From NCBI GenBank assembly GCA_034721895.1, contig JAYEND010000099.1:521-64520 (forward strand): DNA of 64,000 nt. The letters are read 5' to 3'. Within the stretch, counting starts at the first letter, position 1. Every line of letters begins with the position of its first letter. The position numbers and the translations under genes were made by a program. This stretch comes from Campylobacterota bacterium (lineage in GTDB: Bacteria; Campylobacterota; Campylobacteria; Campylobacterales; Sulfurovaceae). Of the stretch, positions 22,689 through 24,523 are shown piece after piece. The notes under the pieces were generated by a model. The model was not told the DNA's origin. It made no database searches and saw nothing but the letters and a program-made list of their open reading frames with translations.

Positions 22689-22785
22689 GTGTTCAGCGTT
22701 CAGCGTTCAGCGTTTGAGAAACAATAAAAGTATTGCAGCGCAATACATACCAACACTATTCACTATTCACTATTCACTATTCACT
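22689..22785 (+). repeat. composite intergenic element, copy 2: (GYGTTCA)x3.7, hairpin, (CACTATT)x4.6
   Basis: Left array at 22689-22714. Box AACAATAAAAG. Hairpin TATTGC-agc-GCAATA at 22731-22745. Linker CATACCAA. Right array at 22754-22785. Confidence 0.85.
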
Positions 22786-22820
22786 CAAGATAAGGACTTT
22801 CAATGAAAGTCCTTATCTTG
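22786..22820 (+). promoter_or_regulatory. perfect 15-bp hairpin sequestering SD and start codon of the downstream hydrolase gene
   Basis: CAAGATAAGGACTTT (22786-22800) pairs base-for-base with AAAGTCCTTATCTTG (22806-22820). The loop CAATG contains ATG 22803. Confidence 0.7.
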
Positions 22821-23336
22821 CACGGCTGGGGCGGAAGTGATACCCCGCACTGGCAGGCTGAACTTGCCTGCACACTGGCCAAAGACTATGGAACCGTCAG
22901 CTTTCCGCTGCTGGACAATTGCCACTTCCCAAGCAAAAACAGATGGGTACGGCAGGTTAAAGAAATTTTGGAAGATTTTAAACCCGATACAGTTGTCTGC
23001 CACTCCCTTGCCAACACCCTTTGGTTTTGGCTTTGCCAACAGGAGATGAGAACTGTTGAGAAATTGATTATGGTTTCTCCGCCAAGTCTTACAACGAACG
23101 TCGATACGATTAAAACATTTTTCCCTTGCCCCATGCCACAAATACTTTGCGCAAAAGAAACCATCATGATCGTTTCAGATAATGACCCCTATATTACGAT
23201 CAACGAAGCACAAAAACTCTCAAAGCATTATCATGCACCGCTTACGATCATTGAAAATGCAGGACACATCAATGCTGACAGCGGGTATGGAAAATGGGAA
23301 TATATCGAAAAACTCATTATAAAGAATAAGTCTTGA
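22803..23336 (+). CDS. alpha/beta serine hydrolase, RBBP9/YdeN family
   Basis: 177 aa with MKVLILHGWGGSDTPHWQ, nucleophile elbow VCHSLA, SDNDPY and AGHIN (Ser-Asp-His visible). Confidence 0.75.
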   Translation: MKVLILHGWGGSDTPHWQAELACTLAKDYGTVSFPLLDNCHFPSKNRWVRQVKEILEDFKPDTVVCHSLANTLWFWLCQQEMRTVEKLIMVSPPSLTTNVDTIKTFFPCPMPQILCAKETIMIVSDNDPYITINEAQKLSKHYHAPLTIIENAGHINADSGYGKWEYIEKLIIKNKS

Positions 23337-23338
23337 AA

Positions 23339-23410
23339 GCATTCAGCATTCAGCGTTCAGCGTTCAGAATAGAAGCATTGCAAAGCAATGCCTACCGACA
23401 CTATTCACTT
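23339..23410 (+). repeat. composite intergenic element, copy 3: (GCRTTCA)x4, hairpin, (CACTATT)x1.6
   Basis: Left array at 23339-23367. Hairpin GCATTGC-aaa-GCAATGC at 23375-23391. Linker CTACCGA. Right array at 23399-23410. Confidence 0.85.
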
Positions 23411-23411
23411 T

Positions 23412-23435
23412 CTGAGGATCAAAAATGATCCTCAG
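23412..23435 (+). promoter_or_regulatory. perfect 9-bp hairpin sequestering SD and start codon of tsaD
   Basis: CTGAGGATC (23412-20) / GATCCTCAG (23427-35). The loop AAAAAT overlaps ATG 23425. The SD GAGGA lies in the 5' arm and codons 1-4 lie in the 3' arm. Confidence 0.65.
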
Positions 23436-24444
23436 TATCGAATCAAGCTGTGACGACAGCTCTATCGCCATTACAGAAATCGCAACCAAAAAAGTTCTCT
23501 TCCACAAAAAGATTTCCCAGGAGGCAGAGCACTCCTGCTACGGCGGCGTGGTACCGGAACTGGCCAGCAGACTTCATGCGGTTGCCCTGCCTGAGATCCT
23601 AAAAGAGACGGAACCCTTCTTTTCACATCTCAAAGCCATTGCTGTCACAAACCAGCCTGGGCTTGGCGTCACACTGATGGAAGGGATCGCTATGGCAAAA
23701 ACCCTTGCTGTGCTGCTTGATATTCCACTGATAGCCGTCAATCACCTCAAAGCCCATATCTACTCTCTCTTTATAGAAAAAGAAGCCATTACACCCCTTC
23801 TTGTACTGCTGATCTCAGGAGGCCATACGCAGATCATCCGTGTCGAAAGTTTCGAAAAGATGGAGATCCTGGCCACCAGCATGGATGACAGCGTTGGAGA
23901 AAGCTTTGACAAATGTGCCAAGATGATGGGATTGGGCTACCCGGGTGGACCGGTCATAGAATCATTGGCACTACGGGGAGATGAAAATCGCTTCGACCTC
24001 CCCGTTCCTCTGCGCAACTCACCGCTGATCGCTTTCTCTCTCTCCGGCCTCAAAAATGCGGTACGCTTGCAAATCGAAAAATGCAAAACCTCCAACCAGG
24101 GAGAACTCACTGTACAGGATCAGTGCGATATTGCTGCCTCCTTCCAGAAAGCAGTTAAACTTCATCTTCTGCAAAAGAGTAAAAAGATCTTTGCAAAGGA
24201 GCCGATCAAGGAGTTTGCCATCGTCGGCGGTGCCAGTGCAAACTTCTATATCAGGGATGCCTATGATGCTCTCTGTAAACAGTATGGCAAAACCCTTCAT
24301 ACCACAGCTCTGGAATACTGTTCAGACAACGCCGCCATGGTTGGACGCTATGCCATAGAAGCCTATAAACGAGATGATTTTATCGACCCTGACAAAATCG
24401 ACATCATCAGCAATAAAAAACAGCAAAGCGGCACTCTTTTATAG
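23425..24444 (+). CDS. tsaD: tRNA N6-adenosine threonylcarbamoyltransferase TsaD
   Basis: 339 aa with [16 protein letters not shown]..., [21 protein letters not shown] and GGASAN. Confidence 0.95.
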
Positions 24445-24456
24445 CCCCCTCAACCC

Positions 24457-24523
24457 CAATAAAAGCATTGCCTGGCAATGCCTGCCACCACTCTCCACTC
24501 TTCACTCTTAACTCTTAACTCTC
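24457..24523 (+). repeat. composite intergenic element, copy 4 (no left array): hairpin, (CACTCTY/AACTCTT)x5
   Basis: Box CAATAAAA. Hairpin GCATTGCC-t-GGCAATGC at 24465-24481. Linker CTGCCAC. Right array at 24489-24523. Confidence 0.8.

Follow-up and report, generated by a model that had tools for sequence, protein, structure and literature searches.

A dispersed hairpin and heptamer-array module within short ORFs bridging gene junctions in Sulfurovum-group Campylobacterota

Structure of the element and its four copies

The 64,000-nt stretch of contig JAYEND010000099.1 analysed here (the window; all coordinates are positions in it) comes from a Campylobacterota bacterium of the Sulfurovaceae and carries a composite repeat built of 7-bp tandem arrays and a short hairpin. 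A sequence-only reading had placed three copies of this element, in the same orientation within 1.9 kb, in the consecutive gaps between dxr, a hydrolase gene, tsaD and gyrB. Re-reading of positions 21300-25200 recovered these copies (B, C and D, respectively) with all their parts, Pfam assigned dxr, Ser_hydrolase, TsaD and GyrB to the surrounding genes, and a fourth copy in the same orientation (A, 6938-7057), alluded to in that reading, lies between the genes of a 2-hydroxyacid dehydrogenase and a fumarate-reductase-type flavoprotein. The earlier description of the element as intergenic does not hold for the intact copies A, B and C, as they lie within small plus-strand open reading frames (ORFs) bridging the flanking genes. 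Each of these putative relay ORFs begins near, at or overlapping the stop codon of the upstream gene and ends in an ATGA overlap with the next gene.

A copy is made up of an A-rich box (A-box), a 7-bp hairpin (hairpin 1), a linker (ATACCRA) and a (CACTMTT)n array, and the fixed-register core ATTGC-N3-GCAAT-N3-YRCCRM-CACT is common to all four. All features described below are on the plus strand, and the bit scores given for the cores refer to the covariance model introduced in the next section.

In copy B a left array of 3.7 GYGTTCA units (22689-22714) precedes the core (22723-22753, 61.1 bits), which comprises the A-box AATAAAAG (22723-22730), hairpin 1 GTATTGC-agc-GCAATAC (22730-22746) and the linker ATACCAA (22747-22753). 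The right array consists of four CACTATT units plus CACT (4.6 copies, 22754-22785) and is followed by a second palindrome (hairpin 2, 22786-22820), CAAGATAAGGACTTTC-aat-GAAAGTCCTTATCTTG, with a perfect 16-bp stem and a folding energy of -22.2 kcal/mol, in which a Shine-Dalgarno-like (SD-like) AAGGA is buried and the AUG is located at the loop. The bridging ORF, sORF-B (22675-22806, 43 amino acids), has its ATG 14 nt within the 3' end of dxr and an SD-like GAGGTGAG, and its TGA overlaps the hydrolase ATG at 22803.

Copy C has a left array of four GCRTTCA units (23339-23367), a core (23368-23398, 56.7 bits) with the A-box AATAGAA, hairpin 1 GCATTGC-aaa-GCAATGC (23375-23391) and the linker CTACCGA, and a right array in the short form, CACTATT plus CACT (1.6 copies, 23399-23409). 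In its hairpin 2, CTGAGGATCA-aaaa-TGATCCTCAG (23412-23435), the AUG and first codons of tsaD are paired; the region folds at -16.7 kcal/mol. The 31-amino-acid sORF-C (23333-23428) uses a TTG start overlapping the hydrolase TGA at 23334-23336 (TTGA) and terminates with a TGA overlapping the tsaD ATG at 23425.

In copy A the left array, 4.3 CGTGTTA units (6938-6967), contains no stop codon in any of the three frames. The core (6995-7025, 46.6 bits) has the A-box AATCAAAG, hairpin 1 (G)TATTGCC-a-GGCAATA(T) (7002-7018) and the linker CCACCAA; four CACTCTT units plus CACT (7026-7057) form the right array. Hairpin 2 (7058-7088, -12.7 kcal/mol) pairs the SD GGAG (7075-7078) and the AUG (7085-7087) of the flavoprotein gene. 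The left array, the hairpin and the right array are all spanned by sORF-A (6924-7088, 54 amino acids), whose ATG, with an SD-like GGAGAGA, is 1 nt past the upstream TAA (6920-6922) and whose TGA overlaps the flavoprotein ATG at 7085. Peptides expected from relay ORFs of the family would contain stretches such as HYSLFTIHYSL or PTLFTIHYSLFT.

Copy D is a degenerate, decayed copy that has lost the coupling. It retains the core (24458-24488, 44 bits; A-box AATAAAA, linker CTGCCAC) with hairpin 1 GCATTGCC-t-GGCAATGC (24465-24481) and a right array of CACTCTC, CACTCTT and AACTCTT units (24489-24523). It is devoid of a left array, of a bridging ORF (the AACTCTT variants give TAA stops) and of hairpin 2 (-2.3 kcal/mol). 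The 58 nt separating its array from gyrB (24524-24581) contain TAAAAT (24542-24547) and an SD-like GAGGGAA and may be gyrB's own promoter and ribosome-binding site (RBS), in which case copy D could afford to be uncoupled.

Tandem Repeats Finder recovered identical arrays. The pattern ATTGC-N0-6-GCAAT occurs five times in the window against 0.77 expected, a number never reached in shuffled sequences, and the right-array pattern has 14 matches against 1.98 expected; the left-array pattern likewise lies far above the shuffle expectation.

A repeat family of Sulfurovum-group bacteria

A scan with a loosened core pattern, covering one genome per species, yielded 98 loci. About 84 of them come from Sulfurovum, Nitratifractor or Campylobacterales metagenome-assembled genomes (MAGs) and have the full architecture, while the remaining 14, in unrelated phyla and without arrays, are consistent with chance. 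The covariance model R1, built from 35 seed sequences, recognized 156 copies in the 634 kb of scan loci, including all four window copies. The family consensus comprises the same A-box as in copy B, a 7-bp stem with a 3-4-nt loop, the linker ATACCRA and (CACTMTT)4 plus CACT (32 nt). Period 7 was found in 210 of the 232 tandem arrays of at least three copies within the scan loci, the commonest units being the reverse complements of CACTATT and CACTCTT; the left arrays are composed of many unrelated units.

The length of the right array is stereotyped across species: 94 arrays have five heads (about 80%), 18 have two, and 12 have three or four. The two main classes, of 4.6 and 1.6 copies, differ by 21 nt, which might be taken as a sign of reading-frame constraint. 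This idea was dropped, as the same bimodality occurs at gene ends (five-head/two-head arrays 37/6, compared with 57/12 at gene starts), and this likeness indicates that the length is set by the element and not by the reading frame.

The sequence-only reading had found no described family to which the element could be matched, and had proposed a search for further copies in relatives; such copies turned out to be numerous, and the lack of a match persisted. In Rfam only tRNAs reach the gathering score in the window (the best permissive match scores 27 bits against a threshold of 50), and a literature search for the exact repeats, Sulfurovum repeats and heptamer repeats retrieved no description of the module. 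It is thus a dispersed, lineage-restricted and apparently undescribed repeat family of Sulfurovum-group Campylobacterota.

At the stem ends, the compensatory change between TA and GC that was first observed among the window copies is real and holds for the whole family. In 149 distinct copies 98.8% of the stem cells are paired, compared with 30-48% when the partner columns are slid, and double changes affect six of the seven stem pairs (114 cells), although the independent events are fewer than these counts suggest, the copies being related and the alignment fitted to the model. Even so, the covariation signal is unambiguous. Family stems include GCATTGC and, outside the search pattern, GCTTTTC/GAAAAGC, GTTTTGC/GCAAAAC, GCTTTCT/AGAAAGC, GTTTTTC/GAAAAAC and GCGTTGC/GCAACGC, each perfectly complemented. 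Wobble pairs (11 G.U versus 3 genuine A.C on the window strand) favour folding of the plus strand. The energies of hairpin 1 in the four window copies range from -3.9 to -10.4 kcal/mol.

Several scan loci deserve a separate comment. A MAG labelled Pseudomonadota (L060, 38.5% GC) carries a typical module with a CACTATT/CACTCTT array and is probably a mis-binned Sulfurovum-like contig. The match in a Gemmatimonadota MAG (L081) is a chance one within an unrelated GTGCAGA/ATGCAGA array, heptamer arrays thus being present in other phyla as well. Clostridium tepidiprofundi DSM 19306 (NZ_LTBA01000037.1; L063:547-619) has a module-like element, GAAATTGC-gta-GCAATTTC followed by AACC and about four CACTATT units, which scores 42 bits with R1; this contig of a vent isolate is genuinely Firmicute (27.8% GC) and has other short repeats upstream of the element, which could be a case of horizontal spread or of convergence.

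Putative relay ORFs and the second hairpin

Family-wide, 33 of the 46 sense-oriented modules lie in an ORF of the kind seen in copies A to C, or 35 after two start calls (L003 and L037) were corrected by hand, the start codons outside the window having been called heuristically. Shuffled sequences gave an expectation of 7.6 (mononucleotide) or 11.5 (dinucleotide), and none of 200,000 simulations reached 35. The stop codon of the bridging ORF falls at -2 to +4 of the downstream start, while the stops of the other non-gene frame scatter from -31 to +221. The last in-frame start codon upstream of the module is preceded by an SD-like motif in 22 of 34 cases, against a background of 8% (p ~1e-16).

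The reading frame through the module is not constant, two being used among the copies, and the sORF was therefore ruled out as a conserved peptide gene; any benefit would have to come from the act of translation, not from the peptide. The ATGA overlap was set aside as stand-alone evidence: 46% of the control starts share it, so the overlap alone is weak evidence and we relied on the shuffle controls instead.

A special type of left array, (GAGGAAT)n, was noticed in L007, L012, L041, L087, L088 and L145. Each unit combines an SD (GAGGA), an ATG and an overlapping TGA, the array thus forming a stop-and-restart signal in three frames whose last unit supplies the start of the leader ORF.

A gene-specific hairpin 2 usually lies between the array and the boundary of the neighbouring gene. 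Next to modules, the initiation region folds with a median of -13.2 kcal/mol, compared with -5.1 kcal/mol at 362 control starts (p ~1e-13), and the pairing of the AUG and the SD is also higher than at control starts. Hairpin 2 is missing at empty and REP-filled (REP, repetitive extragenic palindrome) orthologous junctions. Its counterpart at the 3' ends of genes is a palindrome that includes the stop codon. Hairpin 2 could originate from selection for RBS occlusion or from a mechanistic inverted duplication.

Insertion polymorphism at orthologous junctions

The two junctions around the hydrolase gene were compared in 80 orthologous loci (68-78% identity), collected by a metagenome scan with the hydrolase as a query, and only six of them contain matches to the model. 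At the dxr/hydrolase junction, about 35 loci have an overlap of 11-20 nt with the hydrolase ATG within dxr (MSTQDKVLILHGW), about 20 have an inverted pair of GTAG REPs, i.e. the known Sulfurovum REP associated with RAYTs (REP-associated tyrosine transposases), and about six have a CACTMTT array alone, directly past the dxr stop; the full module is present in the window. The ATG used by sORF-B corresponds to the ancestral start of the hydrolase gene, as seen at the empty sites. At the hydrolase/tsaD junction, about 38 loci have an ATGA overlap, while at the filled sites REP pairs or modules stand between two ATGA copies.

As most orthologous junctions are empty, with the genes overlapping there, the module was inserted into junctions that were originally overlapping and translationally coupled (ATGA or a 17-nt overlap). 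The inserts have short direct repeats around them, CAA(GA)TAAG and ATGA(T), which may have arisen as a new start codon was selected for. Terminal inverted repeats are lacking in single modules, and in some loci modules form inverted pairs.

Filled junctions are bridged by ORFs more often than shuffling predicts. At hydrolase/tsaD this concerns all 19 REP pairs (3.6 expected) and all seven modules (1.2 expected), compared with none of four other fill-ins (0.19 expected). At dxr/hydrolase, all seven arrays or modules (2.9 expected) and approximately seven of 20 REP pairs (1.8 expected) are bridged. Taken together, array- or module-filled junctions are bridged in 14 of 14 cases against 4.1 expected, and REP-filled sites in 26 of 39. 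The length of the hydrolase/tsaD gap equals 1 modulo 3 in 22 of the 26 filled sites, as a relay from ATGA to ATGA requires.

The GTAG REP pairs (GTAGGGTGTTGT...ACAACACC), none of which was found in the window, fill the same two junctions in other lineages (L103-L177, e.g. L163, L132 and L126). Since all 19 pairs at hydrolase/tsaD lie in an ORF that runs from one ATGA to the next, relay ORFs may not be confined to the heptamer module.

Orientation and gene context

The array side of the module lies very close to the gene boundary, with median distances of 18 nt for start codons and about 0 nt for stop codons. The genes downstream of modules are housekeeping or essential (dxr, tsaD, coaD-like, dnaB-like). 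Between co-directional genes, modules of the ATTGC type occur 33 times in the window orientation and 10 times in the opposite one. In the window orientation the linker and array contain 1.9% G (23% in the background), lack structure and leave all three frames without a stop, and hairpin 1 is not followed by a U-run, so transcription and translation can proceed across the module. When the module is reversed, the AATAGTG/AAGAGTG array gives TAG and TGA in every frame and is followed by the hairpin and UUUUAUU. Forty-five family members have the array side directly at a stop codon, which puts the hairpin and the U-run in terminator orientation; at gene 3' ends the module thus reads as a stop-and-terminate cassette.

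Conventional promoter motifs were also considered. The A-box was rejected as a sigma-70 -10 element, its final T being missing and a simple scan having found no plus-strand promoter in 21500-24700, and sigma-54 and sigma-28 motifs, judged by eye, did not fit.

Interpretation and alternative explanations

The explanation that we favour, with somewhat better than even confidence, is that the element is an inserted REP-like module, tolerated as it is translated through within relay ORFs, so that coupling is preserved. The family membership, the stem covariation, the insertion polymorphism, the maintenance of the ORFs beyond chance, the SD enrichment and the stability of hairpin 2 were observed directly; to these the explanation adds that the sORFs would be translated and that ribosomes would reinitiate behind them. 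The relay ORF would start at or overlapping the upstream stop (in copy B, at the ancestral ATG of the hydrolase gene), and the ribosome would read on through the left array, the hairpin and the right array, to terminate at the UGA overlapping the downstream AUG. There it might melt hairpin 2, which would otherwise sequester the downstream SD and AUG, and reinitiate; the relay would in this way restore a coupling that the gap of about 100 nt would abolish. Experiments have shown that coupling by termination and reinitiation breaks down once the gap reaches about 20 nt (PMC10666635), and a 100-nt insert is thus expected to uncouple the genes unless it is translated through. That an intergenic sORF can unlock a sequestered RBS is established (PMC8092293).

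A broader version of this idea, which we regard as tentative and rather less probable than not, assigns the module the role of an orientation-dependent 'punctuation cassette' spreading through the genomes of Sulfurovum-group bacteria: placed one way, it would act as a natural bicistronic-design leader, a translated tract relaying ribosomes over the insertion to a hairpin-locked start, and reversed, as three-frame stops followed by a terminator.

Several points weigh against an inserted module maintained by read-through. Neither a transposase nor terminal inverted repeats nor a clear target-site duplication was found. The benefit would have to arise, as the two frames of the relay peptide suggest, through the act of translation, and the conserved A-box and hairpin are without an assigned role in the sense orientation. 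The array-length classes (five or two heads), equal at gene starts and ends, are not explained by frame. The family copies are related and include near-duplicate loci (L133/L134, L145/L156), which brings the effective sample below the counts given, and the frequent ATGA among control starts and the heuristic start calls noted above also belong here. Furthermore, the exact sequences of sORF-A, -B and -C are absent from a collection of 15 billion proteins, meaning that annotation pipelines have not called them.

Some of these points would suit selfish or neutral mobile DNA, REP-like or similar to miniature inverted-repeat transposable elements (MITEs), with the ORFs as mere by-products of the sequence and of the common ATGA. 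This explanation, which we consider unlikely, accounts well for the patchy lineage-specific abundance, the presence or absence at orthologous sites, the occurrence either way round, at gene starts as well as gene ends, and the array length independent of context, and it agrees with the sORFs missing from protein collections and with the modest bridging of REP-filled dxr/hydrolase junctions (just about 7 of 20). However, the openness, phase and upstream starts of the ORFs exceed composition-matched shuffles (35 vs 11.5 family-wide, 14/14 vs 4.1 at the orthologous junctions), SD-like motifs are about eight-fold enriched at sORF starts, and strong RBS-sequestering hairpins occur specifically beside modules; copy D, having lost the ORF, also lacks hairpin 2 and has the extra upstream sequence. 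Heptamer arrays inside ORFs that need a given end frame could also constitute a phase-variation switch, 7 not being a multiple of 3: one unit gained or lost would shift the relay frame, leaving the downstream gene coupled, uncoupled or fused. The sequence-only reading had likewise pointed to the arrays as slipped-strand substrates. The precedents are contingency loci, such as the CTCTT coding repeats of Neisseria opa genes, the 7-bp repeats of H. influenzae hmw and tetranucleotide repeats in Haemophilus, and the likeness goes as far as a short pyrimidine-rich tandem repeat, open in all frames, within the coding part of a leader or ahead of a gene. Unlike those loci, the arrays proved invariant in three independent, near-identical assemblies of the strain (Logan contigs SRR26901924/29/30, L099-L101, only three contigs, with 0-1 mismatch in 1.9 kb), about 80% have exactly five heads across species and most others two, and the genes downstream are housekeeping or essential, not contingency genes; we regard the switch as the least probable of all the explanations.

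The terminator features of the reversed module raise the question of whether hairpin 1 is a minus-strand intrinsic terminator or the 3' end of a small RNA, the hairpin and UUUUAUU ending an antisense or small RNA, as the sequence-only reading had supposed. A consensus scan indeed marks hairpin 1 of copy B as terminator-like on the minus strand, where the A-box reads as a U-run, and, as in Rho-independent terminators, a stem-loop with UUUUAUU often comes right after a stop codon, as in the 45 family members in terminator orientation. The supposition fits those reversed members at gene 3' ends, but it gains little support for the window copies: the stems are short and weak, the U-run is good in copies B and D only and poor in A and C, all neighbouring genes are on the plus strand, so that no gene is placed to be terminated by these copies, the 33 to 10 orientation bias runs against the terminating direction, and the excess of G.U over A.C pairs favours the plus strand. 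For the window copies it is very improbable. A more serious alternative, although we still think it an unlikely one, and slightly more so than selfish DNA, is an untranslated cis-regulatory leader, in which hairpin 1 stabilizes the RNA and the single-stranded, G-free array serves as a standby site for ribosomes, or as a surface on which S1 or cold-shock proteins assemble, and so helps to open hairpin 2. The unstructured, pyrimidine/A-rich array of about 32 nt whatever the context, its end 18 nt (median) short of the start codon, the sequestered RBS, and the wobble pairs and GNRA-type loops favouring sense-strand folding all agree with such a role, and one S1 or cold-shock protein per 7 nt would be analogous to the proposal for TAACTGA repeats in Beggiatoaceae, which supplies a precedent and candidate binding proteins (PMC4679880). 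On the other hand, these proteins remain candidates only, the many unrelated left-array units argue against a single sequence-specific binder, and the stop/start overlap, the SD and ATG before the module and the gaps of 1 modulo 3 are left unexplained.

Two further ideas were discarded. Pairing of the left with the right arrays into long double-stranded RNA was rejected, as the window left units (GCGTTCA, CGTGTTA) are not complementary to CACTMTT. Binding repeats of the HutP or TRAP type (NAG-N4) on the opposite strand amount to a pattern only, contradicted by the left array of copy A.

Comparison with known repeats and coupled leaders

The published parallels, i.e. REPs and bacterial interspersed mosaic elements (BIMEs), TAACTGA arrays and RBSs unlocked by sORFs, each match only part of the module. 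The RAYT-associated GTAG REP of Sulfurovum sp. NBC37-1 is a known REP/BIME (PMC3733652, PMC4690160). Like REPs and BIMEs, the module has a short conserved hairpin (17 nt) with subfamily stem covariation and conserved unpaired flanks, and is found at gene junctions tens to hundreds of times, pointing either way and often as inverted pairs, with presence/absence polymorphism. Unlike them, it is flanked by AATAAAAG and ATACCRA, neither a GTAG nor a CGTC tag, and possesses a fixed-length heptamer array, an A-rich box and a gene-specific second hairpin. No association with a RAYT was seen; the one candidate arrangement examined, a REPtron-like one with a gene between divergent modules (L024), was rejected, the gene encoding a hexapeptide-repeat protein. 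Moreover, at the orthologous junctions the module is consistently found in bridging ORFs (14/14), unlike REPs (26/39), and the survey in PMC3733652 excluded REPs within short ORFs as spurious.

The TAACTGA heptamers of marine Beggiatoaceae and cyanobacteria occur in two to six tandem copies, are predicted to be unstructured and have been proposed to act in translation (MacGregor 2015, PMC4679880). Like CACTMTT, they are tandem 7-nt units, mostly forward and within a few nucleotides of starts, including those of housekeeping genes, and they occur in sulfur oxidizers of vent and sediment habitats. In contrast to CACTMTT, which is stop-free and found in another phylum, TAACTGA contains stops, and no covarying hairpin, linker, A-box or relay ORF has been described for it. 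The cyanobacterial short tandemly repeated repetitive (STRR) heptamers may be grouped with TAACTGA as a partial parallel.

Coupled leader cistrons, among them RBS-unlocking intergenic uORFs (e.g. PMC8092293), and the synthetic 'bicistronic design' share with the relay ORFs a small upstream reading frame equipped with an SD, a stop overlapping the next start, and an SD and AUG buried in a hairpin. They differ in that the leader here is a dispersed repeat, present at many unrelated genes in differing frames, with a function predicted from sequence.

The module adds a repeat family outside Rfam and the searched literature to an ecologically important clade of vent and sediment sulfur oxidizers. 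Its dispersed arrays fragment short-read assemblies of these genomes, and the same-strain Logan contigs all break inside the right array of copy B. It also offers a testable answer to the old puzzle of bacterial heptamer arrays located right before start codons. If an inserted module is indeed maintained by being translated through, it would show how translational coupling survives the insertion of mobile repeats. On the broader and less probable cassette idea, relay ORFs would systematically rescue overlapping gene pairs hit by such insertions, a mode of operon evolution. The relay ORFs would then be a class of repeat-built short ORFs missed by annotation pipelines and discarded as spurious in surveys, as well as a natural counterpart to the engineered bicistronic design of synthetic biology.

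Other repeats and features

Module-bearing genomes hold several distinct classes of hairpin repeats. In three loci (L001:~6340-6372, L085 and L093) the CACTMTT array is broken by a 33-nt insert, TACCCCAAGGGCACTTGTCCCTTCGGTCGGGCG, which appears to be another small mobile sequence targeting arrays. Further small perfect palindromes, GGGACTTCAGTCCC and GCGACTGAAGTCGC, recur beside modules (L002, L009, L019 and L024:4030-4075). Elsewhere in the window, five clustered minus-strand tRNA genes occupy 44873-47030 and have no bearing on the repeat.

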